A DNA stretch of 64,000 nucleotides from Verrucomicrobiia bacterium (GTDB lineage: Bacteria; Verrucomicrobiota; Verrucomicrobiia; Limisphaerales; UBA11358). Both the position numbers and the translations under genes were made by a program. This document shows, one piece after another, positions 19,834-55,815 of this stretch; position 1 is the stretch's first letter; every line of letters begins with the position of its first letter. Under the pieces are notes generated by a model, which was not told the DNA's origin, made no database searches, and saw only the letters and a program-made list of their open reading frames with translations. Where the stretch lies: positions 56,627 to 120,626 of the forward strand of contig JANWKE010000075.1 in the NCBI GenBank assembly GCA_025451535.1, written 5' to 3'.

Positions 19834-20223
19834 ATGGATTTTTACGACAAGCTGAAATTCGACGCCAATGGTCTGATCCCCGCCATCATTCAGGAGCGGC
19901 AAACCGGCCGCGTCCTGATGATGGCGTGGATGAATCGCGCCTCGCTGGAAAAGACCATGGAAACGGGCAAAACCCATTTCTGGAGCCGTTCCCGCCAGAA
20001 ATTCTGGATGAAAGGTGAAACCAGCGGCCATGTGCAAAACGTCAAGGATATTGCGTTCGATTGCGACGGCGACGTGCTACTCATTCAAGTTGAGCAGACC
20101 GGTGCAGCGTGCCACGAAGGTTACCACTCCTGTTTTTTCCGGTCGGTGGAAAAAAACGGGAAATCGGTTAAGATAACGGAGGCCCAACTCGAGACGCCGG
20201 AACAAATTTACGGAAAGAAGTAA
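19834..20223 (+). CDS. hisI: Phosphoribosyl-AMP cyclohydrolase
   Basis: [30 protein letters not shown] and [11 protein letters not shown]. Confidence 0.96.
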
Positions 20224-20843: not shown

Positions 20844-20854
20844 GCTGTTGGCGC

Positions 20855-37300: not shown

Positions 37301-38762
37301 CGTGTTCGTGGACGCCGGTGAATATCATCCGCAACCGGAATGGAGTGAAAATATTCCGCATCCGGTCGAACAGAGCCGTGGCCAGACTGGCAGTGGTGAC
37401 GCTTACAGTCCGGGCTGGTTTGAACTGCCATTGCCCAAGGGTGGAAGCGTAATGCTGATCGCGACAGCGGAAAAAGACGCCGAAGCCCAGGTTTCAGCTG
37501 GTAAAGCCGGTACCCTGAAGCGTGAATTTCAACAAACTGAACCTCCCCTCATTCCGTTTGAAAAGCAGCTTTTGTGCGCCGCCAAACAATTTGTCGTCCG
37601 TCGCGACCGAGGTAAAACCGTCATTGCCGGATATCCCTGGTTTTTGGATTGGGGGCGGGACACGCTGGTCTGTGCGCGCGGCCTGCTGGCCGCCGGAATG
37701 GCCGAAGACGTCAGGCAAATCCTGCTTACTTTCGCGAAATTCGAAAAAGACGGGACTTTGCCCAATGCGATTTATGGTGACAACACCTCGAACTGCGATA
37801 CCGCCGACGCCCCGTTATGGTTCGCCATCGCGTGCGAGGAATTTGCGGAGACTGCACCTCACGATTTTTATTCAACGCCCGTTGGCACCAACCGTACCAT
37901 CCACGACGTGCTGGCGAGCATTGCAGAAAATTATTCGCGCGGCACCCCCAACGGTATTTGCCTGGACACGGATTCAGCATTGATTTGGTGTCCAGGTCAT
38001 TTCACCTGGATGGACACGAACCATCCCGCCGGCACACCGCGTGAGGGTTATCCGGTGGAAATCCAGGTTTTGTGGATTCGATTATTACGCCAACTCGAGA
38101 AAGTGGCCGCGCCCGCTGATCAAAAGAAATGGCGCGACCTGGCCAACCGTGCGACGGCTTCGTTTACGAAGCTGTTCTGGCTGGAAGACCGGAGTTGGCT
38201 CGCCGATGTGTTACTTGCCGGGCCGCGCGTTATGGCCCACGAGGCCACGCCCAGTGACGCGCTCCGCAGCAATTGTCTGTTTGGCGTGAGCCTCGGTCTG
38301 GTGACCGGCGAACGTGCAAAACGCTGTGTCGAAGCGGCGCTGCGTTATCTGGTCGTGCCGGGCGCGTTGCGAACGCTTGCGCCGCTTCCGGTGTCTGTGG
38401 CATTGCCGGTTTACGACAAAAATGGCGGGCTTTTGAACAATCCCACCGAACCGTATTGGCCGCATTACGAAGGTGACGAAGACACGCGCCGCAAACCGGC
38501 TTACCACAACGGCACGGCGTGGACGTGGACGTTCCCGACCTTTTGCGAGGCGCTCGCCCGCGCGTGGGATTTTGCGCCGGACGCCGTGGCCACGGCGAAA
38601 GCGTATTTAGGCAGCATGGAAAAATTAATGAACGAGGGTTGCCTCGGCCAGATTCCCGAAATTCTGGACGGCGACGCGCCGCACACCCAGCGCGGCTGTG
38701 ACGCACAGGCGTGGGGAGCAACGGAGGCATTGCGGGTTTGGAAACTGCTGGATGGTCGTTGA
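34374..38762 (+). CDS. Fused glycogen debranching enzyme (GH13-like domain plus GDE N-domain and amylo-alpha-1,6-glucosidase)
   Basis: GH13 regions DIVINH, GFRCDAG, LLEG and ETHDN. C-terminal half has LLTNGIGG, AGYPWFLDWGRDT, FTWMD, AYHNG and CDAQAW. Confidence 0.88.
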   Translation: MEQPVPTMTPAPGERLVRFVGDHVRFTLRDGRPSGNPAQVEEAQGRWRGLLRTNLGRGAARRREIIAAHAGGVGQAGTSWHDVPMQKNGDVWEIELPLVEVGFFKAKPYLQDAKGWQHWPEGHDVGISVHPDFCRTANAIYCAFTRLFGATRTAAIGVDPELNFQLNPLDSQGYTVIPPSGKLRDLTQQLPHIVQTLGCRILHLLPVHPTPTTYARFGRFGSPYAALDLTAVDPALAEFDHRTTAIDQFCELTSAAHALGARVFLDIVINHTGWGAVLQENHPEFFLRQPDGTFASPGAWGVTWGDLVEMKQDGVALWDIIAGALLTWCRRGVDGFRCDAGYKIPASAWQYIIARVQEEFPETIFLLEGLGGSWEATENLLTEGGMQWAYSELFQNYSGPEVANYLDYALRQGARIGLYVHYSETHDNERLAKRGRAWSLMRNRLCALTSVSGGFGFTCGVEWLAAENIKVHDCTGLSWDSHNNIVPELARLNQLLADHPCFFDGAKLTRLSAPDSPIYVLRRESAGEKDSVLVLINTDLEKENSITLAGSELQIPHCEFELLGQPLPKTVAAGSKITFTLPAGACHCLAPTAEPQGLSGNAYRRIRAQAAFAVQAMRCVLPTESIPVLPWQGLANLIDEAPARLLAAITDLAGEFSQAQKNHSDFSTMAARLTALAKSLQKYPRVVVWTLLDRRRITPVPPGHWLLIEDSTPFRAVLEIRNGNGQGRTSQHVQSIAVRNGFAACFPPQTNAAEAGLGLERYAATSQRVSAVIRFLPAEPKSEIRNPKPEDLALLTNGIGGMARIYADLSRVNSKYDCVLGANLHPSVPVDRHVFVKRIRAWVSADGFLSPLDFKNLTSFVPGPPAIWRFVANAGDGRTVEIELRAEMLEGKNTTIFRFSRPTAERASGKQLPGDADVRLTVRFDIEDRNFHSETRRNGGADYHFSTNTHDLQTPNSKSGNLTGFAFTPAPERQLRVFVDAGEYHPQPEWSENIPHPVEQSRGQTGSGDAYSPGWFELPLPKGGSVMLIATAEKDAEAQVSAGKAGTLKREFQQTEPPLIPFEKQLLCAAKQFVVRRDRGKTVIAGYPWFLDWGRDTLVCARGLLAAGMAEDVRQILLTFAKFEKDGTLPNAIYGDNTSNCDTADAPLWFAIACEEFAETAPHDFYSTPVGTNRTIHDVLASIAENYSRGTPNGICLDTDSALIWCPGHFTWMDTNHPAGTPREGYPVEIQVLWIRLLRQLEKVAAPADQKKWRDLANRATASFTKLFWLEDRSWLADVLLAGPRVMAHEATPSDALRSNCLFGVSLGLVTGERAKRCVEAALRYLVVPGALRTLAPLPVSVALPVYDKNGGLLNNPTEPYWPHYEGDEDTRRKPAYHNGTAWTWTFPTFCEALARAWDFAPDAVATAKAYLGSMEKLMNEGCLGQIPEILDGDAPHTQRGCDAQAWGATEALRVWKLLDGR
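36711..36738 (+). repeat. Heptamer tandem repeat (CCGAAAT)x3 plus CCGAAAC inside the debranching enzyme
   Basis: Read directly from the sequence. Translated as PKSEIRNPKP. Confidence 0.85.
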
Positions 38763-40109: not shown

Positions 40110-40181
40110 TCACAACCTGCGTACTTTGAAAGCATGAATATGGACGTTGCCAAGCAGCGCCGGGTGGACAAAAATTGCGGC

Positions 40182-40667
40182 GTGCATTTTCGTGACAAGA
40201 TCATTGCGTGGGACAAACTACCAACCTGGCGCACGGCCTTTCGCGCAACCGGCAAAAAACTGGTCGTAACCAATGGCTGTTTCGACATTCTGCACCTGGG
40301 GCACGTCACTTATCTTGAAACCGCGCGCGACCTCGGCGATGCCCTGCTGGTGGGTGTGAATGGCGATGAGTCCGCGCGGCAATTGAAGGGTGAGGGTCGC
40401 CCCGTGAACTCGGAAGCTGACCGTGGTGCCGTTTTGGCGGCCCTGGCCAGCGTGGCCGGCGTTTGTATTTTCGCGGAAAAAACGGCCGTAAAATTCCTGA
40501 CGGCGGCACAACCGGACATTTATGTCAAAGGTGGTGATTATACCCCGAACACGCTGAACCAGGACGAACGTTGCGCGGTTGAATCTGCCGGCGGGAAAAT
40601 CGTGATTATTCCATTTGTCCCCGGCAAATCCACGACGGCGATACTGGAAAAGATTTCGCGGTTGTGA
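40182..40667 (+). CDS. rfaE2: Heptose 1-phosphate adenylyltransferase (HldE domain II / HldC)
   Basis: VTNGCFDILHLGH, LKGEGRP, VKGGDY and GKSTT. GTG start at 40182 preferred, ATG 40134 possible. Confidence 0.88.
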   Translation: MHFRDKIIAWDKLPTWRTAFRATGKKLVVTNGCFDILHLGHVTYLETARDLGDALLVGVNGDESARQLKGEGRPVNSEADRGAVLAALASVAGVCIFAEKTAVKFLTAAQPDIYVKGGDYTPNTLNQDERCAVESAGGKIVIIPFVPGKSTTAILEKISRL

Positions 40668-41728
40668 AAATCCTGGTCATTTCCCTTGCCGGCATCGGCG
40701 ATACACTCATCGCCACGCCGTTCATCCGTGAGTTACGCGAGAATGTCCCGGCCATGGCCATCGATGCGCTGGTGAGATGGCCGGGCGCGAAGGATTTGCT
40801 GGAACACAATCCGAACATCAACCGGGTGTTCCAGAAGAACCTGATGTCGTGCGGAAAGTTTGAGGCGCTGCGCTTCTTCCGGATGCTGAGACGGGAGCGT
40901 TACCAGCTTTCCATCAACACGCACCCGCAGGGCCCGAGGCTCTATCGTGTCGCGGCGTGGCTGGCGGGCGCAGAGGTGCGCATCAGCCACGAATACGAAC
41001 GCTTTACCTGGCTTGACCGGCTGTTGGTCACCGGCACCTTGCCGCAGGATTATTCGCGACACTCAATTGAAAATAATTTCGACGTGCTGCCATTGATTGG
41101 CGCAAAGAAAAAACTTGCGTCGCATGAAATGGAATTTTTTCTCGAGCCCGGCGACGAACGGCTGGCGGATGATTTTCTGGCAAAACACCAATTATCCGGT
41201 CAGAAAATTCTTGGCATCCACGTCGGCTCCGGCGGAACAAAGAATCTCCGGCTCAAACGCTGGCCGTTAAAGAACTATGCCGGCCTGGCGCGGCGGTTGA
41301 ACCAGGGGCGGCCGGACATCCGTATCCTGCTGTTTGGCGGGCCGGAGGAAATCACCGACCATCCGGTGGTACTGGCGCAGGCAAACCGCGATTTGACGCT
41401 GGAAGTCAAAACCCAAAACCTGCGGCAGACGGCGGCGTTGATGAAGCGGTGCAGCGCGTTCCTGAGCGTGGACACGGTGCTCATGCACGTCGCCGCTGCA
41501 ATGAAGGTGCCCAACCAGATCGTCATCGAAGCGCCGACATTAAACCCGACGAATCTGCCTTATGGACATCCCTTCACCCTGATAAAAAATCCCGCTGTGG
41601 CAGGGCGGAATCTGAATTACTACCGTTACGACGGCAGCGACATCAAAGGCACGCGCGAAGAATTGCTGGCCTGCATGGCATCCATCACGATTGAAAACGT
41701 CTACGAGACGGTGAACAGGCTGATTTGA
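40664..41728 (+). CDS. Glycosyltransferase family 9 (heptosyltransferase-like)
   Basis: KILVISLAGIGDTLIATP, KRWP..NY, GGPEE and FLSVDTVLMHVAAA. Confidence 0.88.
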   Translation: MKILVISLAGIGDTLIATPFIRELRENVPAMAIDALVRWPGAKDLLEHNPNINRVFQKNLMSCGKFEALRFFRMLRRERYQLSINTHPQGPRLYRVAAWLAGAEVRISHEYERFTWLDRLLVTGTLPQDYSRHSIENNFDVLPLIGAKKKLASHEMEFFLEPGDERLADDFLAKHQLSGQKILGIHVGSGGTKNLRLKRWPLKNYAGLARRLNQGRPDIRILLFGGPEEITDHPVVLAQANRDLTLEVKTQNLRQTAALMKRCSAFLSVDTVLMHVAAAMKVPNQIVIEAPTLNPTNLPYGHPFTLIKNPAVAGRNLNYYRYDGSDIKGTREELLACMASITIENVYETVNRLI

Positions 41729-41740
41729 CCCCCGATTAAA

Positions 41741-42460
41741 CTACAACGAAAATCCTGCCGCCTTGGCGTCGACGGCAAACATTTTCACGGTGTCCAGCGA
41801 CATTTCCGGCAAACCGGTTCCCACCAGCTTCATCGCCTTGTTCAGAATGTCATGCGGTACGGTCACAATTTTACAGCCGCATTCCTCGGCTTGAAAAATA
41901 TTGAGTACTTCACGAACACTGGCCCAAAGCAACTCGGCCTGCGGCAGCCCGGCAAGGATTTTATTCGCATTGCGCATGTGCGGCATCGGGTCCTCACCGA
42001 CATCAGCAATGCGACCGGCAAACACGGAAACCACGGCAGGCACTTTGGGATTGAGCGCCTTCGCCACCCCCGTCACCTGTTCCTCGGTGAACATGGCGGT
42101 GATATTGAGCTTCACCCCTTCCTGGGCCAGTTCGCGCACGAGCGGCAATGAAGATTCGCTTCGCGTGTTGGTAATGGGAATTTTGACATAGACGTTTTTT
42201 GCCCAGTCCTTGATTTTCAGCGCCTGCCGCCGCATTTCCGCAAACTCGTCAGAGAAGACTTCGAACGAAATCGGTTTTTCCGTGATGCTTTTCAAGATGT
42301 CACGCGCGAACGCCTCGTAATCATGAACCCCCACTTTGCGCATGAGCGAAGGATTGGTGGTCATGCCTTTGATCAGCGGGTTGGCATTCAGTTGGAGCAT
42401 TCCGGTTTTGTCCGCGCCATCGGCGAAAAGTTTTACTTTGAGACTGGCTAAGTTTTTCAT
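41741..42460 (-). CDS. tal: Short transaldolase (TalC type)
   Basis: TTNPSL, SFEV, VYVKIP (Schiff-base Lys), SVFAGRIAD and WASVR. The Glu/Phe pair indicates transaldolase rather than FSA. Confidence 0.88.
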   Translation of the reverse strand: MKNLASLKVKLFADGADKTGMLQLNANPLIKGMTTNPSLMRKVGVHDYEAFARDILKSITEKPISFEVFSDEFAEMRRQALKIKDWAKNVYVKIPITNTRSESSLPLVRELAQEGVKLNITAMFTEEQVTGVAKALNPKVPAVVSVFAGRIADVGEDPMPHMRNANKILAGLPQAELLWASVREVLNIFQAEECGCKIVTVPHDILNKAMKLVGTGLPEMSLDTVKMFAVDAKAAGFSL

Positions 42461-42498
42461 GCAGCCCACAACATAAAACAACCTTGCCAATCTTCAAC

Positions 42499-43035
42499 TT
42501 ATTTTGCGCCGGCGAGGATAATTCCGGCCGCTTCCAACAGATTTTTAGCGCGAAAATCAGGTTGCTGTTTCAATTCCTCGGCATAACCGCGATCAATGAA
42601 GATGGTCCGGCAACCGGCTGCGTGACCGCAATCCACGTCGCGCCAGCGGTCGCCCACCATCCAGCTTTGCACAAGATCAATGTGCAATTCGCGTGCAGCG
42701 CGCAGCAGCATGCCCGGCTTTGGCTTGCGGCAATCGCAACCCGACAAACCTTTGCCCGGGTGATAACAAACCTCCACCCGATCCAACGGCAACTGTCGGC
42801 GCATTTCCGCGTGAATCTCTTCGACCGCCTCCTGTTTCAGGGTGCCGCGACCGACATCGGGCTGGTTGGTGGCCACCACGAGCAAATAGCCGGCTTGCTT
42901 CAAGCGCCGGCAGGCTTCCGGCACCTCCGGAAAAATTTCGAATTCACCCAGGCTCGCTGAAGGATACGGTTTGCCATCGCGTTCCAGGGCACGGTTGATG
43001 ACGCCATCGCGGTCGAGGAAAACGGCGCGGCTCAT
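42499..43035 (-). CDS. gmhB: Heptose/octose bisphosphate phosphatase (HAD IIIA)
   Basis: FLDRDGVIN, ATNQ, CYH...CDCRKPKPGML and MVGDRWRD. Confidence 0.88.
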   Translation of the reverse strand: MSRAVFLDRDGVINRALERDGKPYPSASLGEFEIFPEVPEACRRLKQAGYLLVVATNQPDVGRGTLKQEAVEEIHAEMRRQLPLDRVEVCYHPGKGLSGCDCRKPKPGMLLRAARELHIDLVQSWMVGDRWRDVDCGHAAGCRTIFIDRGYAEELKQQPDFRAKNLLEAAGIILAGAK

Positions 43036-43043
43036 TTCAGATT

Positions 43044-43640
43044 TTACTTCGTTGATTCCCACTTGGTTTGGGCAACCTTGAGTTTTGGATGGGAAACGAA
43101 CAGATGCCAGATGACAGCCTGAAACGCCTCGCTATGCGGTGTGACGTGAGTCGGGTTCACCGTTGGCACGATCACACAGGCTGTTGCCTCTTTGGCCGTG
43201 TAACCGCCGTCACGTCCGACTACGCCAATGACGGAAGCACCAACTTTTTTGGCGAGTTGAATGGCGCTGACCAGATTCGGGCTGACATTTTTTTCCAGAT
43301 TGCCGCCACCTACGGAAAAAATCAGCAAGCCATCCTTTGCGTTCAAGCGGCTGCCTTTGAGCCACTCGGCAAAAATCGTTGCCCAGCCTTCGTCGTTGGT
43401 TCTTGCGGTCAGTTCGGAAACGTTGTCCGTGGGCGCGTACGCCTCGAAACCACAGATTTTGCGGAAATCATTCACGGCATGGCCCGCGTTGCCCGCGCTG
43501 CCGCCCACACCAAGGATGAACAACCGCCCGCCGCGCTCCCGCACGCGTGCCAGTTCATCGGCGGCCTTTTCAATGGCGTCAACGTTCAATTGCGTGACAA
43601 CTTGCTGGACTTCATCAAGGAATTGTTTGGCAAAGCTCAT
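43044..43640 (-). CDS. gmhA: SIS-domain sugar-phosphate isomerase, divergent GmhA-like
   Basis: GVGGSAGNAGH, LTARTNDEGW..IF and SPNLV.A. Several canonical GmhA residues differ. Confidence 0.75.
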   Translation of the reverse strand: MSFAKQFLDEVQQVVTQLNVDAIEKAADELARVRERGGRLFILGVGGSAGNAGHAVNDFRKICGFEAYAPTDNVSELTARTNDEGWATIFAEWLKGSRLNAKDGLLIFSVGGGNLEKNVSPNLVSAIQLAKKVGASVIGVVGRDGGYTAKEATACVIVPTVNPTHVTPHSEAFQAVIWHLFVSHPKLKVAQTKWESTK

Positions 43641-44353
43641 GGTGATTTTGATTGTAGCAGTGATTCCAGTTCCGCCAAGCCTGCGGGTGAACCCATTTCG
43701 TAAAAGCGCTCACGCACTTCATAGCCGGCCAGTTGTTTTTCATGGACCAGCCCGCCCATGACTTGGGCCAGATCCAGGGGCTGGTCGGGAGGGTACGTAT
43801 TAAAGACCACCGCTTTAAACAGGCTCAATCCATAGTCAATATGTTGCATCTCCGGTACGCGGTTCTTTTTATCGTAAACCACAATTCCACCGTCCCGGAA
43901 AACGACGTTGCTGGTGTCGTAGCGGCCGGCATTGCGATAGACGGTCATGCAACCCGGTTTGCCGCTGCGATGGAAAAATTCCGCCACCGGACGGTATTCC
44001 ACCGGCAGATAGGAATCGCCATAGAGCACAAAAAACTCGTCTCCGAGCAGGGGCAGCGCCCGTTTGACCGCGCCACCGGTGCCGAGCAATTGGGGACCAT
44101 CAAACGAATAATCAAGCCTCAGGCCAAAAGCCGAGCCCTCACCAAAATCCCGTTGAATCATCTCCCCGAGATACCCGACGCATAAAACCACACGCCGAAT
44201 TCCACGTGAGCGCAGCAATTCCAGCTGATGCGCCAGGAATGGTTTCCCGGCCACCGGCACCAGTGATTTGGGAATTTTTTCCGTGATGGGCCGCAAGCGG
44301 GTCGCCAATCCACCCGCGAGAACGGCGACAGGAATTTCGAGCGAGGCACTCAC
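43637..44353 (-). CDS. hddC: Sugar-1-phosphate guanylyltransferase (HddC-like)
   Basis: LAGGLATRL.P....PK, LLGTGGA and YGDSY. Confidence 0.78.
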   Translation of the reverse strand: MSASLEIPVAVLAGGLATRLRPITEKIPKSLVPVAGKPFLAHQLELLRSRGIRRVVLCVGYLGEMIQRDFGEGSAFGLRLDYSFDGPQLLGTGGAVKRALPLLGDEFFVLYGDSYLPVEYRPVAEFFHRSGKPGCMTVYRNAGRYDTSNVVFRDGGIVVYDKKNRVPEMQHIDYGLSLFKAVVFNTYPPDQPLDLAQVMGGLVHEKQLAGYEVRERFYEMGSPAGLAELESLLQSKSP

Positions 44354-45330
44354 GAAATCAACAGCTTGGTGCCTTCAAAGTCAAAACGGAAGCGGACTTC
44401 CTTGAGGCCTGCTTCACGCATGGCCTGTCGCAATTTCACCTTGTCCTCGGCGTAAAACATCAGAAATCCACCGCCGCCGGCACCGATGAGCTTGCCGCCC
44501 AGCGCACCGCTGGCCATCGCCCGGTCATACCACTCATTTATCTTCGGATTGGTCATGCCACCACTGCGTTGTTTTTTACGCTGCCAATGTACGTCCATGA
44601 GCCGGGCAAACTCCCGGAGATTTCCGGACTCAAGCGCGCGCTGGCTTTGCAGACCGAGCTCCTTGACGAAGTGCAGGTTTTCAATCATGGCCGCATCCGC
44701 CTGCTTTGATTTTTGATCCTGCTCCTTCAAAATAGTCGAGGCCGAACGGGAATAACCGGTGAAGAACAGCAGCAGATTGTCTTCCAAATTATCACGCGTC
44801 TCATCGGAAATCTTCAACGGCCACGCCTCCACTTTGCCATCCGGCAAAAAATTGAAACAGGTGACCCCGCCGTAAGCGGCGATGTATTGGTCCTGTTTGC
44901 CAATCGGCGCCTTCAACCGGTCGAGTTCAACTTCGCACGCCTGGGCCGCCAGCTCCGCCGGGTGAACCAGATTTTTTTTATGGGCATGCAGTGCCTTGAG
45001 CAGCGCGGTTGTGAAGCTGCCGGAAGAACCAAGACCGGTTCCGGCCGGAATGTCCGCCATCGAAGTCAATTCCAGCGCATGACCAGCCATACCGACGAGC
45101 GCGAACGCTTCGCGAAGAATCGGGTGTTTCAATGTTGTCGCGTCCGGTACCCGCTCCAACTCCGAATACTTCACGATCAAATCCGACACGAACGTGTCGT
45201 GCAACGTAATATAGACGTATTTATCAATCGCCGCCGCGATGAGGAAGCCACCGAACTTTTCATAGTAGGACGGCAAATCCGTCCCGCCGCCACCGAGGGT
45301 AACGCGAAGGGGAGAGCGTGCGATAATCAT
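44350..45330 (-). CDS. hddA: GHMP sugar-phosphate kinase (HddA-like)
   Basis: PLRVTLGGGGTD, PAGTGLGSSG, GKQDQY and GGKLIGAGGGGF. Confidence 0.85.
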   Translation of the reverse strand: MIIARSPLRVTLGGGGTDLPSYYEKFGGFLIAAAIDKYVYITLHDTFVSDLIVKYSELERVPDATTLKHPILREAFALVGMAGHALELTSMADIPAGTGLGSSGSFTTALLKALHAHKKNLVHPAELAAQACEVELDRLKAPIGKQDQYIAAYGGVTCFNFLPDGKVEAWPLKISDETRDNLEDNLLLFFTGYSRSASTILKEQDQKSKQADAAMIENLHFVKELGLQSQRALESGNLREFARLMDVHWQRKKQRSGGMTNPKINEWYDRAMASGALGGKLIGAGGGGFLMFYAEDKVKLRQAMREAGLKEVRFRFDFEGTKLLIS

Positions 45331-45370
45331 TTCAAATTGGGCTGTTACGTCCGGGTTCTCGGACTAGGAT

Positions 45371-46378
45371 TTAGAGTTTTGGCGGCGCGGAGTCAAAGGT
45401 AATTCCACTTTGCCGGTAAATTTTGCCGACGACTTGAAGCGTGGCTTTAGCCTCCTTTAATCCCGCATCCGGTTTCCGCTGCAACTGGATATCCTTTTCA
45501 AATTCGGTCATTTCGATCCGCCATGATTCGTCGGGACCGGGAAATTCGTAAACCTGCGTATCGGGAATGCCCATCTCCGGCTTCATCTGGTAGTGATACA
45601 GTTTTTCGATGCCGTAACTGCCGCCCAGCCCTTCGATGTGCAGCTTCGTGTTACGGCCGTAAATCTCGAATGAGAAAAGATTTTTCCACTCTGTGCAACT
45701 GACGTGCAGCCACGCGGTCTGACCTTTGGCCGTTCGCAGACTCAAAAATGCGTTGTCATCCACCGGCATCTTCCAGAAATAGGTCGTGGCGTAGCCGTCA
45801 ATTTTTTGGAAATCGCCAAGAAACCAGTGCGCCAAATCAATCAGGTGGATACCCTGGTCAATCAATTCACCGCCGCCGGAAAGTTTCGGATTCGCGCGCC
45901 ACTCCTTGTCGTAGCCAACCCGCCCGCCGTGACCGTAGCGGGCGCGGACGAACATCAATTCGCCCATCACGCCGGATTCAAAAATCTCCCGCGCCTTGAG
46001 GAACGCCGGATGATAGCGATGATTGAAGCCGACACGGACGCAAACGCCGTGTTTTTTGGCCAGTGCGATTAACCCATCAATCTGCTTCGCGGAAACGCCC
46101 GCCGGTTTTTCCACGAGTACAGGTTTGCCCGCGCGAATCGCGGCGGCGGAAACTTCGGCGAGAGCGGCATTGACGGTTGCCACAATCACCGCGTCCACCT
46201 GCGAACTCACGACAGCTTGTTTGAAATCGACAACCGGCCGGCCGGCCGCGGCCAGCCTCACAAGTTCTTCGGCTCGGGCGAGATTCGTGTCACAGGCAAC
46301 CGCGAGCCGTGAACCCGCCGGCAATCCTGCCAGCCGCTTTTTCCCAATCAATCCGCAACCGATAATGGCGTAGTTCAT
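45371..46378 (-). CDS. Gfo/Idh/MocA-family oxidoreductase
   Basis: IIGCGLIG, VLVEKP, GFNHRY and GGGELIDQGIHLID. Confidence 0.9.
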   Translation of the reverse strand: MNYAIIGCGLIGKKRLAGLPAGSRLAVACDTNLARAEELVRLAAAGRPVVDFKQAVVSSQVDAVIVATVNAALAEVSAAAIRAGKPVLVEKPAGVSAKQIDGLIALAKKHGVCVRVGFNHRYHPAFLKAREIFESGVMGELMFVRARYGHGGRVGYDKEWRANPKLSGGGELIDQGIHLIDLAHWFLGDFQKIDGYATTYFWKMPVDDNAFLSLRTAKGQTAWLHVSCTEWKNLFSFEIYGRNTKLHIEGLGGSYGIEKLYHYQMKPEMGIPDTQVYEFPGPDESWRIEMTEFEKDIQLQRKPDAGLKEAKATLQVVGKIYRQSGITFDSAPPKL

Positions 46379-47238
46379 TTGTCGCCCCAGGTTTTACCGC
46401 GGTCCTTTGGCGCAATGCGGCGCAACGTGTAAATGTCGCTGTTCAAGTCATTCTTGAATTCGTGCAATTTTTCCCACGGATCCCATTGCGCGCTGATGAG
46501 TTTGCCGGTAATGCCGTCGCTCTCCGCGCTGGCGAGATAAACCGCGAGCCGCGCGCCGAGTTCCAACGGCGTCGCGCCCTTTTCCTTCCACTGCCTGTTC
46601 TTCTCGATAAAAGCGGCGCCGACCTTTTCCGGCCCGGCGGCGAGCACCTCATCCACGAGCCGTGTTGCCAGCGCGCCCGGTGCGATCGCATTCACGTCCA
46701 CGTGAAACGGCTTCAACTCCTCGGCCAGGGTCTCGGCGAGGCGGACGACGGCGGCCTTTGACGCAGCGTAGGAGCTGATGTTCGGCAGTGGATTCGTTGC
46801 GCCTCCGCCGGAAAGAACCATGATTTTGCCCCGACCGGTTTTTTTGAAATACGGAATGACGGCACGGCACGGCAGCAAAACGCCGCAGAGATTGATGTCC
46901 AGCGCGCGACGCCATTCAACGAGCGAAACGGATTCCGTCGGTCCCATCGGTCCGTAAACGCCGGCGTTCAGCACGAGCGCCTGGAGCGAACCCAGTTCGC
47001 GCACTGCGAAGGCAACAAGTTCATTGGCCTGCCCTTCATTTGATACATCGCAGGTTTTCGCCAAAACCTTCTGCGCGGAGAATTTGGTCGCCAGTTCATC
47101 GCGGGTGGCGAGCAATTCCTTTTCGCCACGGGCGCAAAGGACGACACTCGCACCTTCGCGCAGGAAATGCTCAGCGATGGCTTTGCCGAGTCCCTGGCTG
47201 CCGCCGGTGATGAGCGCGTTGACGTTTTTCAGTTTCAT
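46375..47238 (-). CDS. Short-chain dehydrogenase/reductase
   Basis: TGGSQGLG, LNAG, YAASK and VNAIAPG. Confidence 0.9.
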   Translation of the reverse strand: MKLKNVNALITGGSQGLGKAIAEHFLREGASVVLCARGEKELLATRDELATKFSAQKVLAKTCDVSNEGQANELVAFAVRELGSLQALVLNAGVYGPMGPTESVSLVEWRRALDINLCGVLLPCRAVIPYFKKTGRGKIMVLSGGGATNPLPNISSYAASKAAVVRLAETLAEELKPFHVDVNAIAPGALATRLVDEVLAAGPEKVGAAFIEKNRQWKEKGATPLELGARLAVYLASAESDGITGKLISAQWDPWEKLHEFKNDLNSDIYTLRRIAPKDRGKTWGDK

Positions 47239-48506
47239 TTTGCGCGTCCGACGGAAAGATGCTCGACCCCGGCGATGCTTTTCAATTCCTTTTCCAGAAA
47301 CCGGTTGGCGTCCACAAAAACCGGCTGTTTCATCGCCTGAACCGTTTTCGGCCAGTCAATCTGACGGAACTGCGGCCATTCGGTGCAAATGACGGTGGCG
47401 TCCGCGCCGTCCAAGGCGGCAGCGACATCGACTGCAAGTGAAACCTTGCTCAAATTGTTCGGCAGACTCTTCACGGCCGGATCAAAAGCGGCCACCCTGG
47501 CGCCCGCCTTCAAAAGCTGTTGGCACAATTCAACCGCGGCGCTGCGGCGGAGCGTGTCGGTGCTTGTCGTGTAAGTCAGGCCCAGGACGGCGATTTTCCT
47601 GCCGCGCAGTTTTCCAAGACGCGACTGCAATCGCCGGAACGCCCAGCCGCGATGTAAATCGTTGCTCTGCTTGATGGCCGGAATAACGGATATTTTTTCA
47701 CCTTCGGCTTTGGCGAGTTTCGTTAAAGTCACCACATCGCGCGCGAGCGTGCCGCCGGCGAACGGCCCGCCGGGGCCGAGATACGCCTTCGGCCCGATGC
47801 GCGGCTCGCTCTTCAGCCCGGCGGAAACCTCCTTTGCGTCCGCGCCGACGTGCTCGCACAACCGCGCGATTTCGTTGATGAAGGTGATGGACAGCGCGAG
47901 GAACGAATTCAACGCATGCTTGACCATCTCCGCTGACTCAGAGCGCATGAACAAAATCTGCGACGTGAACGGCGCGAACAATTTTTCGAGCAGCGCCCTT
48001 TTGGTGCCGTCACGGATACCAACGATGACGCGCCCGGCCTTTTCAAACGCGTCAATCGCCTTGCCGAGCCGGAGATTTTCCGGCGAGCAGGCGAAGTGAA
48101 ATTGTGGGAATTTCTTTTCCAGCTTCGCGCATGCACCGACCGGCAATTGCGAGGAAATCAAAACCAGCGCATCTTCCGGCAAATGGGGCAGCGCCTTGCG
48201 AAGATTTGCCAAAACCGATTCCACGTCTGATTCGTCGTGCTCGTTCACGGGCGTGTCGTAACAAAGCCAGAGCACGTCGGCATGGGCGCAGGCGATGGGC
48301 GCGTCGGCCGTGAATGAAAGTTTCCGGGCGGCAATCCCGGCGGCAATGAGTTCGTTAAGGCCCGGCTCAAACAACGGCGCCTGGCCCTGGTTCAGCTTCG
48401 TAACGGTCACTGCATCGAAATCCAGGCCGGTGACCTGAAAATGTTTCGCGCAGCACGCAGCGGTGACGCAGCCGAGGTGCCAGAGGCCCTGGACGACAAT
48501 CTTCAT
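47235..48506 (-). CDS. UDP-glucose/GDP-mannose dehydrogenase-family protein lacking the catalytic Cys
   Basis: PLFEPGL, SPENLRLG, SAEMVKHALN and PRIG. GPFAGGTLARD replaces GGxCxPKD. Start at 48506 is ATGA-coupled. Confidence 0.85.
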   Translation of the reverse strand: MKIVVQGLWHLGCVTAACCAKHFQVTGLDFDAVTVTKLNQGQAPLFEPGLNELIAAGIAARKLSFTADAPIACAHADVLWLCYDTPVNEHDESDVESVLANLRKALPHLPEDALVLISSQLPVGACAKLEKKFPQFHFACSPENLRLGKAIDAFEKAGRVIVGIRDGTKRALLEKLFAPFTSQILFMRSESAEMVKHALNSFLALSITFINEIARLCEHVGADAKEVSAGLKSEPRIGPKAYLGPGGPFAGGTLARDVVTLTKLAKAEGEKISVIPAIKQSNDLHRGWAFRRLQSRLGKLRGRKIAVLGLTYTTSTDTLRRSAAVELCQQLLKAGARVAAFDPAVKSLPNNLSKVSLAVDVAAALDGADATVICTEWPQFRQIDWPKTVQAMKQPVFVDANRFLEKELKSIAGVEHLSVGRAK

Positions 48507-49474
48507 CGTCGTTCGAGCACCCATTGGTTTTGCTGGAGCCATTGCAGCGTGCGAACAATGCCCTGTTCAATTGTCAGCGAAGTTTTCCAGCCGGTGGCAC
48601 GGACTTTTTTTGTGTCGAGGAAAATGAACGGGTTGTCACCCACCCACCCTTTGTTGCCGCCGGAGTATTCAAGCCTGGGCTTAAGGCCAAGTGCGCTGCA
48701 AATAAAACCGACAGAATCGTTGACTTGAACGTATTCATCCGTTCCCAGGTTATAAGTCTCCACGCGGTGTTTCGCCTTCTTCGCCATGCCTTGCGCAATA
48801 ACGTGGAGCATCGCCGCGAGACAATCGCCGATGTAGAGGTAGGATTTTTTCTGCATACCATCGCCGAGGATTTTCAAGCAGTCGGGGTGAGCGGTTAGTT
48901 GTTTGTAAAAATCCAGGACATGGCCATGCGTGTAACGTTCGCCGAGAATTGAAACAAACCGGAAAATGTATCCCTCAAAACCGTAGCCTTCGCAGTAAGC
49001 ATGGATGAATCCTTCACAAGCCAGTTTCGAGGCTCCATAAAGCGAAGTTTGCACGGGAAACGGCGCATTTTCCGGTGTCGGGATGATTTCCGACTCTCCA
49101 TAAACGCTGCCGGTGGAGCTGAAGGCGATGCCCTTGATATTGTTGGTGCGCATGGCTTCGAGCACGTTGAAAGTGGCTACGGCATTTTGTTGAAAATCCT
49201 TATGCGGGTGGTCAAGGCCGAATCGCACATCGGCGTTGGCAGCCAGATGAAAAACAAAATCGCAGCCAGCCATTGCGCGAGTCAGGGCGGACAAATCCAG
49301 GCAGTCCCCTTCGATGAGTTTGAACCTTGAATGAGCGCGCGCCGTCTGAAGAAATTCCTGTTGTCCGGTGGAGAAATTGTCCCAGCCAACGACCTTCTTG
49401 CCATCGCTCAAAAGCCGATCCACCAGGTTACTGCCAATGAAACCAGCCGCACCGGTGACAAAAACTTTTTCCAT
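48503..49474 (-). CDS. NAD-dependent nucleotide-sugar epimerase/dehydratase
   Basis: TGAAGFIG, HLAANADV, SSTGSVYG, YGASK and GWVGD. Confidence 0.9.
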   Translation of the reverse strand: MEKVFVTGAAGFIGSNLVDRLLSDGKKVVGWDNFSTGQQEFLQTARAHSRFKLIEGDCLDLSALTRAMAGCDFVFHLAANADVRFGLDHPHKDFQQNAVATFNVLEAMRTNNIKGIAFSSTGSVYGESEIIPTPENAPFPVQTSLYGASKLACEGFIHAYCEGYGFEGYIFRFVSILGERYTHGHVLDFYKQLTAHPDCLKILGDGMQKKSYLYIGDCLAAMLHVIAQGMAKKAKHRVETYNLGTDEYVQVNDSVGFICSALGLKPRLEYSGGNKGWVGDNPFIFLDTKKVRATGWKTSLTIEQGIVRTLQWLQQNQWVLERR

Positions 49475-49669
49475 GATTGGGCGGGAAGCTTAATGCGGAC
49501 GGGCAAAGTTCGCCAGTGTTTTTGAAAGCCGCAGCGGCCCGTACCGTTCTGAAGAAAATTCCGGCGATCGCGGCTGAAAGCGCTCCAGCTTTCCTTGACA
49601 GCCGCCGCCGCTCTTTTTAGCGTTCGCAACAGTGAATTTCAAAAATCATGGGCTCCAAAATCCTCGCGC

Positions 49670-50911
49670 ATGAAAAATGTCTGGCGCAGCGGAATCATTT
49701 TTACGGCAATCAGTTTCCTGACCAGCATCGTCTTTTATCTGTTCCAAATGATCGTCAGCCGGCAATTTCGCAATGCTCCGGGCGAGTTCGGGCTGATGAA
49801 CAACACCATCACCTTCATTGGTTTCCTCGCTCTTCCGCTGCCCATGGCCACGCAAGCGGTCACGCATTACATCGCGCGTTTTCATTTCGGCGGCGATGAC
49901 GCGCGCCTGCACGGGCTGCTGGCCGGCTGCCGTAAATTCCTTTTCCACATCACGATCGTCGGTTCGGTCATCGCCCTCATTCTCGTCCGGCCGCTGGGCG
50001 ATTTTTTTCACGTCTCGCGGACCAGTCTCACGTTCATCGCCCTCGCTTGCGTCCTCGGCGGACTTTGGGCGTCGTATGTGACGGCGCTCTGCCAGGGACT
50101 GGGCTGGTTCAAGCGATTGGCCTTGATTGGCTTGCTCGGCGCAACCGCGCGGGTTTTGTTCGGCTGGCCGACCACGCATTTTCAACCCGTCGCCGAATGG
50201 GGCGTGCTCGCGTCGGCGGCGATGTTGCTGCCCAATTTAATCCTGCTGTTCTGGCGCAAGGAATTCCCCCGCCGGACCGATGTGGCAACGTCTCCGTGGA
50301 CTTCGGAATTTGTCCGGTTTCTCATCGTCAGCGCCGCCTATGTCATCGGTTCAAACCTCTTCAATCTCGGGGACAATCTCGTGGCGCAACGATATTTTTC
50401 CAATGCTGATCGCGATGCCTATTCCGTCGCCGAAAAACTGGCGGTGGCCCTGCCGACCGCGGTTGGACCGCTCCTGATTGTTTTGTTTACGCACCGTTCC
50501 AGCCATCATCACGCTGACGCGCGGCTGGAACAATTGAAACTGGCCGGCCTTTATGCCGCCGGGCTGGTTTCCGGGGCGGTTTGCCTTTTTCTGCTGCGAA
50601 AATTTTGCGTGCATCTTTTGAATCCCAACACGCCGGAAGCCGCCACGATGGTTGGCCGCCTCTCCCTGACCATGATTTTCGCCGGGTTGCTGCAATTGCT
50701 CGGCATCTGGTCGCTCGCCAGCCGCTGGTTGAAGATCTCGCTGCTCTACGGTGGCCTTGGACTCGTTTATTGGGCGCTATTGCTGTACTTTGGTAAATCG
50801 CCCGCAAACCTGTTGTACGTGATGCCCATAACCGCCGGAACCGCCTGTGGAATTCTATTCCTTGTCTGGCTCATGACGATGCGCCGGCATAGATCCATTC
50901 CACAAAGCTGA
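49670..50911 (+). CDS. Polysaccharide flippase-like (Wzx/MOP) membrane protein
   Basis: About 12 TM helices, first gene of the plus-strand glycan operon. Start placed at ATG 49670. Confidence 0.6.
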   Translation: MKNVWRSGIIFTAISFLTSIVFYLFQMIVSRQFRNAPGEFGLMNNTITFIGFLALPLPMATQAVTHYIARFHFGGDDARLHGLLAGCRKFLFHITIVGSVIALILVRPLGDFFHVSRTSLTFIALACVLGGLWASYVTALCQGLGWFKRLALIGLLGATARVLFGWPTTHFQPVAEWGVLASAAMLLPNLILLFWRKEFPRRTDVATSPWTSEFVRFLIVSAAYVIGSNLFNLGDNLVAQRYFSNADRDAYSVAEKLAVALPTAVGPLLIVLFTHRSSHHHADARLEQLKLAGLYAAGLVSGAVCLFLLRKFCVHLLNPNTPEAATMVGRLSLTMIFAGLLQLLGIWSLASRWLKISLLYGGLGLVYWALLLYFGKSPANLLYVMPITAGTACGILFLVWLMTMRRHRSIPQS

Positions 50912-50947: not shown

Positions 50948-51961
50948 ATGCCGTCCGGTCCGGAAAATCTACCGCGCGTCAGTTTCATCATGCCGACACT
51001 CAATGTTGAGATGTTGCTGGATAATGCCCTGTCATCGATCGCAAACCAGACCTACTCGCGCAACCGATACGAAATTCTGCTGGCTGATGCACATTCGACC
51101 GACCGGACGCGCGAAATCGCCACAAAATACGGCGCGAGGGTCCTCGACGATGACGGCAAAAACATGGAGGAAGGCAAACGGCTCGCACTCCGCCACGCCA
51201 CCGGCGAATACGTCGTCTTCATGGATGCCGATAATGAAATCACCCATCCCGATTATATTGAACTCGCCGTGAAAGCCTTGTCAGCAAACCCACAAGCACT
51301 CGGGGTGGAGGGCTATTATTTGCCATCGCCGAAAATGAGTTCGTTCTGCACCTACCTGACGCATCGACTGCACATCAGCGATCCGATTGCCTGGTTGATG
51401 AGTACGAAACCAAGGCTCGTGGCGCGCGATGGGGAAGCAGAACGCTGGACGTTGCCGAGTAATTCGCTTTCTTACCCGCTCGGCGCGAACGGCTTCGTCT
51501 TTCGCCGCGCAGATTTGGGATCGGTGAAGGTGGACGAACAATTCCAGGATACCCACGCGGCGTTGTACCTCATGCGGGCAGGCAAACGCGAATGGTTGCG
51601 GATCCGCGGGCGGGGAGTACATCATTATTATGTGCAAACCTGGTGGGGGTTCGTACAAAAACGCCGTCGGGCCACCGTGCATTTCCTGCGCGTGCAGGAA
51701 GAAGCCAGGACGAATTGGATGAAGGAAAAACCGCGGGTGCCGCTCTGGCTGGCAGCGGTTTATTGCGTCACCTGGATCGGTCCACTCTGGCATACCCTCT
51801 GCGGTTTAATTGGTGACCGCGATTTGTGCTGGCTCTGGCACACGCCCGCGTGCCTGGCCAGTGTTTTCGGCGATGCCTGGGGCGTGTGGACTTATAAACG
51901 GCGCGGCAAGGGAAAAAAGCTGATTGCCGAATTACAGGTGAAACAAACCTTGAAGCGGTGA
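50948..51961 (+). CDS. Glycosyltransferase family 2
   Basis: VSFIMPTLN, DAHSTDRT and FMDAD. Confidence 0.88.
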   Translation: MPSGPENLPRVSFIMPTLNVEMLLDNALSSIANQTYSRNRYEILLADAHSTDRTREIATKYGARVLDDDGKNMEEGKRLALRHATGEYVVFMDADNEITHPDYIELAVKALSANPQALGVEGYYLPSPKMSSFCTYLTHRLHISDPIAWLMSTKPRLVARDGEAERWTLPSNSLSYPLGANGFVFRRADLGSVKVDEQFQDTHAALYLMRAGKREWLRIRGRGVHHYYVQTWWGFVQKRRRATVHFLRVQEEARTNWMKEKPRVPLWLAAVYCVTWIGPLWHTLCGLIGDRDLCWLWHTPACLASVFGDAWGVWTYKRRGKGKKLIAELQVKQTLKR

Positions 51962-53160
51962 ACCCCACGACACATTTTGTGCGCGGAAAAATCCATTTCA
52001 TCTCCAACGGTATTTTCAGCACCAGGATTGCCGGAGGCGATGTTCATTTTCTAAAACTGGCTGCAGCGGCCGGACGCGCAGGCTACGAGCTGAATTTTTT
52101 TGGTGGTCATGCGCTGGCAGAGGTCATTGCCCGACACAATCTGCCAGGGTCAGTAACCCTGACGGACGACCGCACCATGAACGAAGTGAATCAAGGCGCA
52201 CTGGGTGGCCAGGTAGCCATGTTCCGCGACTTTTATCGGCGTTACCGGCGTAGCTTGCAGCTACTCCATCAAATCGCACCGGATGACTTTGCCTACGCCG
52301 CGAGCGACTACTGGTTCGATGTATTGCCGGTCGTCCGCTGCCCCGCACGCCGCAAGCTGATGGTACTTCACATGGAAGCGCCCCGGCTTGGCCAGATTAT
52401 CATGCGCAGCCGTCCCGACGTTGATCCGCTGCGTCTGGCATCGCTGCATTACTGGGCCAGCCAGCGATGGTCGCTGCGCCGTTTTGCCAAATGCAAAACC
52501 AAGCGTCTTTTGTATCTGCACCCACTCATGGAGCCACGTCTTCGCAAATCAGGCGTGCGTGACAACGAGGTAACTTTAATATCCTACGGACTGGACGTTG
52601 CCGCTACAGACGCCGTACCAGCCCAAACGCGCACTTACGACGCCGTCTGGATCGGCCGTGTGCATCGACAAAAAGGCATTGATGACCTGCTGGCCACACT
52701 CGCTTACCTCGCCCCGCGGTTGGGAAATTTTCGCGCCGTTTTAATTGGCAATGTGCGCGAGGGGATTTTGCCGCACGTGAAGAAGTTCGGCATTGAAAAA
52801 AATGTGGAGTTCAGCGGTTTTGTCAGTGAAATGGAAAAAATCCGTATATTCAAAGCCAGCCGTGTTTTTCTGATGCCGAGCAAACACGAGGGGAGCCCGC
52901 GCGTCATTGGCGAGAGCCTCGTTGCCGGCACACCGGTTGTGGCTTACGACATTCCCAATTACCGCCCATTGTTTGATGACCTCGTCCGTTACGCGCCGCC
53001 ATTCAAGCTTGAGGCTTTTCAGCAAACCGCCGAGCGTGAAATACAGGAAATGCGCGCCGGTAAAAATTATCTGGATACTCGTAATCTGGCTGATTTCAAA
53101 CGTGAGAATTCCTGGGAGGCGACCCGGGGGAAATTCATCCAGACCCTGGAAAGCCTGTAA
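51958..53160 (+). CDS. Glycosyltransferase family 4
   Basis: GRVHRQKG and PSKHEGSPRVIGES...GTPVV. Confidence 0.85.
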   Translation: MNPTTHFVRGKIHFISNGIFSTRIAGGDVHFLKLAAAAGRAGYELNFFGGHALAEVIARHNLPGSVTLTDDRTMNEVNQGALGGQVAMFRDFYRRYRRSLQLLHQIAPDDFAYAASDYWFDVLPVVRCPARRKLMVLHMEAPRLGQIIMRSRPDVDPLRLASLHYWASQRWSLRRFAKCKTKRLLYLHPLMEPRLRKSGVRDNEVTLISYGLDVAATDAVPAQTRTYDAVWIGRVHRQKGIDDLLATLAYLAPRLGNFRAVLIGNVREGILPHVKKFGIEKNVEFSGFVSEMEKIRIFKASRVFLMPSKHEGSPRVIGESLVAGTPVVAYDIPNYRPLFDDLVRYAPPFKLEAFQQTAEREIQEMRAGKNYLDTRNLADFKRENSWEATRGKFIQTLESL

Positions 53161-54825: not shown

Positions 54826-54924
54826 ACCGTTTACGGATCGTCAAACGGGCAAAACCAACCTGATCAATGCTTGCGGAGAAAAACTGGCCTTGCCCCCAAA
54901 AAGCAGTCTGGCAGGCTGAGCCCA

Positions 54925-55794: not shown

Positions 55795-55815
55795 TTTCGG
55801 GTAGCCTGCGCTGAC

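Follow-up and report, generated by a model that had tools for sequence, protein, structure and literature searches.

The question addressed here is which sugar is made by an operon of nine genes that lies in a surface-glycan locus of a Verrucomicrobiia bacterium, and whose enzyme families recall those that build the eight-carbon sugar of the lincosamide antibiotics. The operon occupies positions 41741-49474 of a stretch of 64,000 nucleotides (GenBank assembly GCA_025451535.1, contig JANWKE010000075.1, positions 56,627 to 120,626 of the forward strand), called the window hereafter. An earlier reading of the letters alone (the original prediction) had proposed that eight of the nine genes match the lincosamide GDP-octose pathway, with a short-chain dehydrogenase/reductase (SDR) standing where the aminotransferase would be. 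The comparisons presented below incline us, somewhat more towards belief than towards doubt, to regard the operon as a cell-envelope version of the lincosamide octose pathway that ends in a reductase.

The Nine Genes of the Operon

Nine co-directional open reading frames (ORFs) were found to span positions 41741-49474, exactly where they had been placed, all of them on the minus strand and tightly coupled, and the nine family names given at that time were obtained again with Pfam and NCBIfam. From the first gene of the operon to the last, these were:

48503-49474, minus strand: extended-SDR epimerase of nucleoside diphosphate (NDP) sugars, LmbM/CcbM-like, first gene of the operon (323 aa; PF01370, 162.9 bits)
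47235-48542, minus strand: protein of the UDP-glucose dehydrogenase (UGD) family without the catalytic Cys, LmbL/CcbL-like, called UGD-like below (435 aa; UDPG_MGDP_dh N-terminal, central and C-terminal domains; TIGR03026, 296 bits)
46375-47238, minus strand: classical SDR, proposed final ketoreductase (287 aa; adh_short, 171 bits)
45371-46378, minus strand: Gfo/Idh/MocA oxidoreductase, LmbZ/CcbZ-like, called Gfo below (335 aa; Pfam GFO_IDH_MocA)
44350-45330, minus strand: GHMP sugar-1-kinase of the HddA/LmbP family (326 aa; GHMP_kinases N and C; best named model HddA)
43637-44353, minus strand: sugar-1-phosphate nucleotidyltransferase of the HddC/LmbO family (238 aa; NTP_transferase)
43044-43640, minus strand: SIS sugar-phosphate isomerase, LmbN/CcbN-like (198 aa; SIS_2)
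42499-43062, minus strand: HAD-IIIA sugar-bisphosphate phosphatase, LmbK/CcbK-like (187 aa; HAD-IIIA and GmhB-like models, under the equivalog cut-off)
41741-42490, minus strand: short-type transaldolase, proposed entry enzyme, last gene of the operon (249 aa; TAL_FSA; TIGR02134, 310.1 bits against a cut-off of 281.95)

Four of the junctions were 4-base overlaps and another was an overlap of 19 bases, while two left gaps, one of 8 bases and one of 40. The junction between the epimerase and the UGD-like gene becomes a fifth 4-base overlap if the latter starts at its 13th codon (48506), where all of its homologues start, and this codon is likely to be the true start. The homologues of the transaldolase began about 10 codons downstream of the annotated start. 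A complex prediction for the UGD-like and Gfo proteins, made with alignments, returned a score of 0.00 and thus no call either way. No RNA data set was listed as containing the operon; the runs listed were soil and rhizosphere DNA only, with partial shares.

Pairing With the Enzymes of Lincosamide Sugar Biosynthesis

LmbR is described as forming D-glycero-D-altro-octulose from ribose-5-phosphate, with fructose-6-phosphate or sedoheptulose-7-phosphate as donor (PMC5854111), and LmbN, LmbK and LmbO as the C8 isomerase, phosphatase and guanylyltransferase (PMC4351081), while LmbM, LmbL, CcbZ and CcbS are described as converting GDP-octose into GDP-lincosamide (a review). For comparison with these enzymes, Streptomyces was reached through an actinobacterial locus of the scan reported below, which led to 401 Actinomycetota genomes; the chaplin-bearing genomes of 7-10 Mb among them (10/401) led in turn to 401 genomes of their genus, taken as Streptomyces from its gene content. 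None of these 401 presumed Streptomyces genomes held a transaldolase over the TIGR02134 cut-off, and six held a weaker short transaldolase.

In two of these six genomes (G780 and G645) a cluster contained genes for an acyl-CoA ligase, a chorismate-binding protein, an O-methyltransferase, a Zn-dehydrogenase, an adenylation protein, a PLP enzyme, PmbA/TldD proteins and DegT, and the Gfo gene (Z) carried a C-terminal extension of about 100 residues. By this content (Ccb2-, 3-, 4-, 5-, C-, F-, Q- and S-like genes together with the extended Z) these clusters were identified as celesticetin-type. They agree with the composition published for the celesticetin cluster, down to the extended Z, since ccbZ encodes a carrier domain at its 3' end (PMC12945683, PMC4351081). 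Four other genomes (G437, G816, G621 and G556; loci L134-L137) carried a block in the order R-S-O-P-Z-N-M-L-K, the order of the published lmbRSOPZNML, beside aminoshikimate-type genes. These four blocks adjoin genes for a class II DAHP synthase, a dehydroquinate synthase, a shikimate dehydrogenase, a second DegT and Gfo, and neither N nor Z has a carrier domain; they may belong to an undescribed natural product with a lincosamine-like sugar outside the lincosamides.

Six proteins of the operon (Gfo, isomerase, phosphatase, kinase, UGD-like and nucleotidyltransferase) were compared with four of these genomes (G780, G645, G437 and G621; forward direction), and the proteins of the sugar blocks were compared with the whole genome from which the window derives (reverse direction). 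Canonical GmhA, HAD-IIIA, Gfo and UGD paralogues were present on both sides of the comparison. In the reverse direction, all eight Ccb-type sugar proteins matched the corresponding gene of the operon best in the whole genome, as did seven of the eight proteins of the lmb-type block. In the forward direction, the Gfo protein found the block Z protein best in 4/4 genomes (153-183 bits against at most 72; reverse, 170 against 94), and the phosphatase found K best in 4/4 (149-157 bits in G780 and G645, 86-91 bits in G437 and G621, against at most 60; reverse, 154 against 65). The isomerase found N best in 4/4 with 61-71 bits, the Streptomyces GmhA not being matched at all, and the two were mutual best hits although GmhA genes exist in both genomes. 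For the UGD-like protein, L was the best hit in the two celesticetin-type genomes (212-216 bits against about 171), whereas the canonical UGD scored higher in G437 and G621. The kinase found P best in 4/4 and this hit was mutual, but each is the only member of its family in either genome. Additionally, the Ccb-type R protein matched only the transaldolase of the operon in the whole genome, and the Ccb-type O protein found the nucleotidyltransferase best (95.9 against 48.5 bits). No Lmb/Ccb sugar enzymes matching the proteins of the operon were found in the PDB.

The reciprocal check suggested by the original prediction thus gave mutual best hits for N, K and Z in all four genomes and for L in two, while the nucleotidyltransferase found its counterpart first in none of the four. 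Hence, the family-for-family match claimed with Lmb/Ccb R, N, P, K, O, M, L and Z held for most of the proteins and was equivocal for the kinase, the nucleotidyltransferase and the epimerase. The enzymes predicted to act on the far end or side chain of the sugar (isomerase, phosphatase, Gfo and UGD-like) pair specifically with the lincosamide C8 enzymes, and those predicted to act at C1 (kinase and nucleotidyltransferase) do not, which is the pattern that would be expected for an eight-carbon substrate.

The UGD-Like Protein Lacks the Catalytic Cysteine and Forms a Unit With Its SDR

The two canonical motifs of UGDs, the Cys of GGxCxxKD and the GxGxxG loop, were both missing from the UGD-like protein. 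When aligned with solved UGDs, which read 'GGSCFPKD', it showed 'GGTLARD', with the catalytic Cys changed to Thr and the neighboring Lys to Arg, and its dinucleotide loop 'GLWHLG' replaced GxGYVG. The L-type proteins showed the same signature, since all four lmb-type sequences aligned read 'DWHLA' and 'AGATLHRD', again with Thr for Cys and the WH pair.

An exhaustive search yielded 3,110 cluster representatives that matched the UGD-like protein at E <=1e-30. When the query and the best 150 of these representatives were aligned, Thr stood in place of the catalytic Cys in 142 of the 151 rows (141 of the 150 representatives), and the Trp of the dinucleotide loop was found in 117 of the 151, with 17 rows gapped at that position. 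With these replacements, the members of this subfamily are predicted to be incapable of acting as dehydrogenases of the usual kind.

In five of the eight over-long representatives a UGD-like domain was fused to a classical SDR, either of the two coming first, and an SDR gene followed the UGD-like gene in 77/80 of the related loci described below. Because of these fusions and this gene order, the two proteins form a unit, which fits the eight-gene variant of the operon, where both are replaced together. Another representative (P0146, 556 aa) has the C-terminal portion of an epimerase joined to the UGD-like domain and would be a fusion or a read-through of the first two genes.

The Transaldolase Accompanies the Kinase, and the Locus Has Three Alleles

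The distribution of the genes was analyzed in 41 relatives from the same genus and order. A UGD-like orthologue (at least 58% identity) was found in 16 of them and a kinase of the type found in the operon (at least 74% identity) in 24. The TIGR02134 transaldolase was present in 23 of the 41, namely in 23 of the 24 genomes with this kinase and in none of the 17 without it; because the 41 genomes are kin, these counts do not amount to a statistical test, but the distribution within the genus is patchy. In the single genome with the kinase and no transaldolase, the kinase lies at a contig end of a 440-contig assembly.

Twelve loci of relatives were compared gene by gene. Four had the nine genes in identical order, a fifth kept that order but contained an additional ORF, one gave fragmented matches to all nine, two from other families had the epimerase and UGD-like genes only, and one ended at a contig edge; the remaining three are taken up below. 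The kinase was on a different contig from the epimerase/UGD-like genes in three relatives that are more distant. Extra ORFs between conserved genes were seen in L020 (13730-16480, 916 aa), L023 (12528-13889, 453 aa) and L026 (14468-15322, 284 aa).

Within the genus, a locus with shared flanks (RfaE-II, GT9, GT2, GT4 and the membrane protein) carried one of three forms. The first was the nine-gene cassette. The second (genomes G016 and G010; loci L172 and L173) had eight genes: in place of the UGD-like gene and its SDR there was one other SDR, 39% identical to the SDR of the window, while the remaining genes and the flanks were 75-96% identical to those of the window. The third (genome G003, locus L138) consisted of an HddA-like kinase, a fused nucleotidyltransferase-GmhB, two extended SDRs, an FkbM-type methyltransferase and another methyltransferase, and was situated between the same GT9/RfaE-II and GT2/GT4 genes. 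This heptose-type module lacked both a dedicated transaldolase and a dedicated isomerase. It therefore serves as a natural control: a heptose module manages without a transaldolase, and both forms that are candidates for octose synthesis always have one. The pattern of three alleles is typical of O-antigen-like diversification.

The genome from which the window derives encodes a classical transaldolase on another contig (C101), in addition to a partial one at a contig end, as well as a GmhA (C2) that scored 170 bits on the gmhA model, against 45 for the isomerase of the operon, and a canonical UGD (C100) with 'GGSCFPKD' and 'GTGYVG'. Since a classical transaldolase and GmhA are encoded elsewhere, the two enzymes of the operon are extra copies, and therefore the operon is not making use of housekeeping genes placed beside it by chance. 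In particular, the idea of a housekeeping transaldolase adjacent by chance was rejected, as the genome has another one.

The Cassette Is Found in Many Phyla

When one genome of each species was scanned with a UGD-like subfamily profile, the scan gave at least 600 stretches, at least 571 of them confirmed; 80 loci among the matches listed were analyzed. These came from Acidobacteriota, Chloroflexota, Verrucomicrobiota, Nitrospirota, Planctomycetota, Myxococcota, Pseudomonadota, Bdellovibrionota and Actinomycetota (Baekduia and Conexibacter), and from metagenome-assembled genomes (MAGs) of the archaeon Methanoperedens. All nine genes were present in 38/80 of the listed loci, in 30 with the same order and strand. 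When only the 48 of the 80 with enough flank on both sides were considered, 33 held all nine, 26 of them in order. The cassette therefore travels as a unit, and its arrangement is more than chance.

As the original prediction had stated, a classical SDR occupies the aminotransferase position: no DegT gene was found within the cassette here or between the UGD-like and Gfo genes in any of the 80 related loci, and no DegT homologue was detected on the contig of the window at E <1e-10. In one Thermoanaerobaculia MAG (L092) a DegT aminotransferase 46% identical to Ccb-type S was encoded at 20019-21143, roughly 4 kb downstream of the transaldolase gene of the cassette, and this locus is possibly an amino-sugar variant.

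Among cultured bacteria, Rhizobium jaguaris CCGE525 has all nine cassette genes on pRCCGE525c, with their order unchanged and 48-71% identity, and eight of the genes, with generic names in RefSeq, are found on plasmid 3 of Lawsonia intracellularis. In public annotation the cassette genes appear as 'galactokinase', 'transaldolase', 'nucleotide sugar dehydrogenase' and similar. The TIGR02134 transaldolase was found in only 6/401 of the sampled Actinomycetota genomes. Three loci of Candidatus Methanoperedens MAGs (L065, L079 and L086) held all nine genes in order in a cassette of bacterial type, which may reflect either inter-domain transfer or a binning error. Four loci (L094, L114, L049 and L076) bore titles such as 'uncultured Bifidobacteriaceae', 'Enterobacteriaceae' or 'Rhizobium sp.'. 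The labels of L094 and L114 look wrong, because these loci were 74-91% identical to that of the window, including the neighboring GT9 and RfaE-II genes; L049 and L076 were only 48-70% identical to it.

Phylogenetic Trees

The trees were unrooted, comprised three clades and show grouping rather than descent. In the UGD tree (30 rows), nine canonical UGDs (from E. coli, Streptomyces and the genome of the window) were separated by a branch with 100/99 support from 15 cassette, four lmb-type and two ccb rows. In the isomerase tree, six GmhAs were split from the cassette and N-type rows (SH-aLRT 89, long branches). In the phosphatase tree, CcbK fell within the cassette group and lmb-type K near the GmhB-like proteins, both with weak support, and the transaldolase tree had three outgroup rows only, too few to show sisterhood. 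Of the groupings anticipated by the original prediction, those of the UGD-like protein with the L-type proteins and of the isomerase apart from GmhA were recovered, and that of the kinase was not, as it went with heptose-type paralogues. The envelope origin of the antibiotic pathway suggested there is not demonstrated by these unrooted trees, in which the Lmb/Ccb proteins lay beside the cassette clade and not inside it, with the weakly supported exception of CcbK.

A Proposed Pathway to a Neutral 8-Deoxy-Octose

Five elements of the octose reading were tested: the gene set, its conservation as a unit, the orthology of N, K, Z and L to their Ccb counterparts, the catalytic loss in the UGD-like protein and the linkage of the transaldolase. 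From these we infer every chemical step, as well as the chain length, the 8-deoxy product, the nucleotide and the acceptor glycan.

In the proposed pathway, the transaldolase would transfer a three-carbon unit from fructose-6-phosphate or sedoheptulose-7-phosphate to ribose-5-phosphate, yielding octulose-8-phosphate, which the SIS isomerase would convert into octose-8-phosphate. The GHMP kinase would then place a phosphate on C1, the HAD phosphatase would remove the 8-phosphate, and the nucleotidyltransferase would form an NDP-octose, probably with GDP. In the antibiotic pathway, the subsequent steps of LmbM, LmbL, LmbZ and LmbS are reportedly a 6-epimerization, a 6,8-dehydration carried out by L and Z together, and a transamination. 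Similarly, the epimerase, the Gfo protein and the UGD-like protein without Cys would epimerize, oxidize and dehydrate the side chain. Because no DegT was found in the cassette or in the 80 loci, the keto intermediate would be reduced by the classical SDR where the antibiotic pathway transaminates, giving a neutral NDP-8-deoxy-octose, which the glycosyltransferases of the lipopolysaccharide (LPS)-type locus would incorporate into a surface glycan. The eight-gene variant would suggest a division of labor in which Gfo oxidizes, the SDR reduces and the UGD-like protein adds the dehydration.

Weighing the Alternatives

Several observations weigh against an octose product made in this way. The identities between the proteins of the cassette and those of Ccb/Lmb were only 27-47%. 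The nucleotidyltransferase found its counterpart third in G780 and G645 and far lower in G437 and G621; in the reverse direction, the Ccb-type M protein preferred the epimerase of the operon narrowly (219 against 209 bits), and lmb-type M preferred an epimerase on contig C155 (241 against 217). The R-type protein scored 78 bits on TIGR02134 and 88 on Fsa/TalC, against 310 on TIGR02134 for the cassette enzyme, which places them in different short-type subfamilies, and TIGR02134 is a model that we take to be defined on housekeeping transaldolases. The shared derived residues of the isomerases were also divided, with one common to the cassette and Lmb/Ccb, three to the cassette and GmhA, and two to Lmb/Ccb and GmhA. 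In the kinase tree, the cassette rows grouped with five HddA-like paralogues of transaldolase-free relatives (SH-aLRT 99), and the Lmb/Ccb P proteins stood on a separate long branch. As for gene arrangement, one or more of the nine genes was missing nearby in 15/48 of the well-flanked loci, the phosphatase and transaldolase genes were not adjacent downstream in three of the twelve loci of relatives, and the transaldolase was on another contig or far away in five genomes, although its co-occurrence with the kinase still held. Two genomes of the same genus had the cassette without the UGD-like gene, so that the pairing of L with Z is not obligatory. Finally, no 8-deoxy-octose of this kind was found in the glycan literature searched, a search with most subscription journals outside its scope.

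Some of these points favor a modified NDP-heptose pathway, in which the transaldolase would top up sedoheptulose-7-phosphate, the activation enzymes would produce GDP-glycero-manno-heptose, and the epimerase, Gfo, UGD-like and SDR proteins would tailor the heptose. All four activation enzymes belong to the GmhA, HddA, GmhB and HddC superfamilies, the kinase groups with heptose-type paralogues and has heptose kinases as its best PDB matches, the TIGR02134 enzymes are annotated as ordinary transaldolases, and the operon adjoins ADP-heptose and GT9 genes at a place where G003 has a plain heptose module. Nevertheless, the same G003 module does without a dedicated transaldolase or isomerase, the genome of the window already possesses a classical transaldolase and GmhA, and the transaldolase tracks the cassette kinase (23/24 against 0/17). 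Furthermore, CcbN and CcbK, and not GmhA or GmhB-like paralogues, are the mutual best hits of the isomerase and the phosphatase, the two enzymes that would act at the distal end of the sugar, and by chemical logic a side-chain dehydration of the L/Z type needs three exocyclic carbons. A modified heptose is unlikely in our judgment, although it is the rival to be taken seriously. The NCBIfam equivalog cut-offs were not reached by any of the four enzymes (gmhA, 45 of 209 bits; HddA, 164 of 600; GmhB, 133 of 178; HddC, 94 of 300). The HddA model is narrow, since kinase paralogues of the same genus from heptose-type or unexamined contexts scored 126-172 bits; it was rejected as a discriminator, as the cassette kinases and these paralogues score alike.

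A different chain length would result if the transaldolase used an aldose phosphate other than ribose-5-phosphate, for example to give a nine-carbon product. The acceptor is unconstrained by the present results, the transaldolase belongs to a different subfamily from R, and the tailoring set varies between alleles; on the other hand, five proteins have C8 enzymes of the celesticetin-type cluster as their specific partners, and the cassette has no extra gene that would supply an aldose phosphate, which makes this option improbable. More improbable still would be the coexistence of two unrelated modules in one operon, one for heptose activation and one for a uronic or keto sugar, with a WbpA/WbpB-like UDP-sugar dehydrogenase and 3-oxidoreductase. 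Pairs of UGD-family and Gfo/Idh/MocA proteins do occur in the pathways to UDP-2,3-diacetamido-uronic acids, and the separate contigs of the epimerase/UGD-like genes and the kinase in the three more distant relatives would be in line with two modules. Against them stand the lack, in the UGD-like protein, of the Cys needed to make a uronic acid, the lack of an aminotransferase or acetyltransferase in the cassette, the joint travel of all nine genes across phyla, and the pairing of L and Z with CcbL and CcbZ. The octose pathway ending in a reductase is hence the reading that we retain.

The Surrounding Glycan Locus

The operon had been assigned by the original prediction to a surface-glycan locus, and its neighbors agree with this: RfaE-II-like and GT9 genes converge on it, and a membrane protein, glycosyltransferases, methyltransferases and RmlD/RmlC-like genes diverge from it. 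The flanking features were:

40134-40667, plus strand: RfaE-domain-II-like heptose-1-phosphate adenylyltransferase, LPS core context (TIGR02199, 179.6 bits, cut-off 181.5; kept beside the cassette in relatives)
40664-41728, plus strand: GT9 heptosyltransferase-like glycosyltransferase, convergent with the operon (PF01075; LPS heptosyltransferase models below their cut-offs)
49595-50911, plus strand: polytopic membrane protein, divergent from the operon (nine hydrophobic segments; kept in relatives)
50948-53160, plus strand: GT2 and GT4 glycosyltransferases that may use the product (Pfam; kept in relatives)

Relatives also keep the GT9 gene, next to the cassette as well as, in G003, next to the heptose module. 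The membrane protein gave no matches in Pfam or NCBIfam and is possibly a polymerase, ligase or flippase. The divergent flank additionally holds methyltransferase genes and, in a row at 54871-57575, the genes for RmlD, an RmlC-like cupin and a sugar C-methyltransferase (Methyltransf_13/14); this row suggests that the locus also directs the synthesis of a second deoxy-sugar, one with a branched chain. Farther away, at 34374-38762, an ORF of 1462 aa with an alpha-amylase catalytic domain and the N- and C-terminal domains of glycogen-debranching enzymes adjoins a GntP permease.

Significance and Comparison With Known Systems

The literature search mentioned above returned no description of the cassette outside antibiotic producers. 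The present analysis contributes the reciprocal comparison with clusters of celesticetin type, the signature shared with the L-type proteins, the counts of co-occurrence and the series of three alleles at one LPS locus. Tentatively, and as a view that we would sooner doubt than assert, a neutral 8-deoxy-octose (the hydroxy counterpart of lincosamine) may be a common and unrecognized unit of the surface glycans of soil and freshwater bacteria from many phyla and of some archaea. It would be made by a mobile nine-gene cassette in which the UGD-like protein serves as a redox-inactive dehydratase partner of the Gfo/Idh/MocA oxidase and the SDR reductase, and the lincosamide sugar pathway would be its specialized offshoot. 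If the product is indeed an octose, a class of sugars known only from a few antibiotics becomes a widespread component of the envelope. A large UGD-like subfamily would likewise be defined, whose members are not dehydrogenases of the usual kind, and the allele series at one LPS locus (nine-gene, eight-gene and plain heptose) would help to assign the role of each tailoring enzyme. Since cultured R. jaguaris CCGE525 has a complete cassette, the question is directly testable.

With the UDP-glucose and GDP-mannose 6-dehydrogenases, the UGD-like protein shares all three domains, a score over the TIGR03026 subfamily cut-off and 30-35% identity, and it differs from them by the changes of Cys to Thr and Lys to Arg, the GLWHLG loop and the frequent fusion to an SDR. 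The WbpA/WbpB-type pairs resemble the cassette in that a protein of the UGD family stands beside a Gfo/Idh/MocA protein in a glycan locus, a likeness at the level of families; unlike them, the cassette has no aminotransferase or acetyltransferase and is accompanied by a transaldolase-primed activation module.

The pathway to GDP-D-glycero-alpha-D-manno-heptose, found in capsules, O-antigens and S-layer glycans, has in common with the cassette four superfamilies (GmhA, HddA, GmhB and HddC), a phylogenetically close kinase and the order of the reactions, in which the sugar is isomerized, phosphorylated at C1, freed of its distal phosphate and nucleotidylated. The cassette is distinguished from it by its own transaldolase, a second isomerase and the Gfo/UGD-like/SDR tailoring set. 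Finally, with the lincosamide amino-octose pathway the cassette shares eight of nine enzyme families, the adjacency of the epimerase and the following UGD-like gene, the mutual best hits of N, K, Z and L, and the loss of the catalytic Cys of UGDs. It departs from that pathway in its gene order and in the SDR that replaces the S aminotransferase, and it is found across many phyla, here in an LPS-type glycan locus without thiol, amino-acid or resistance genes.

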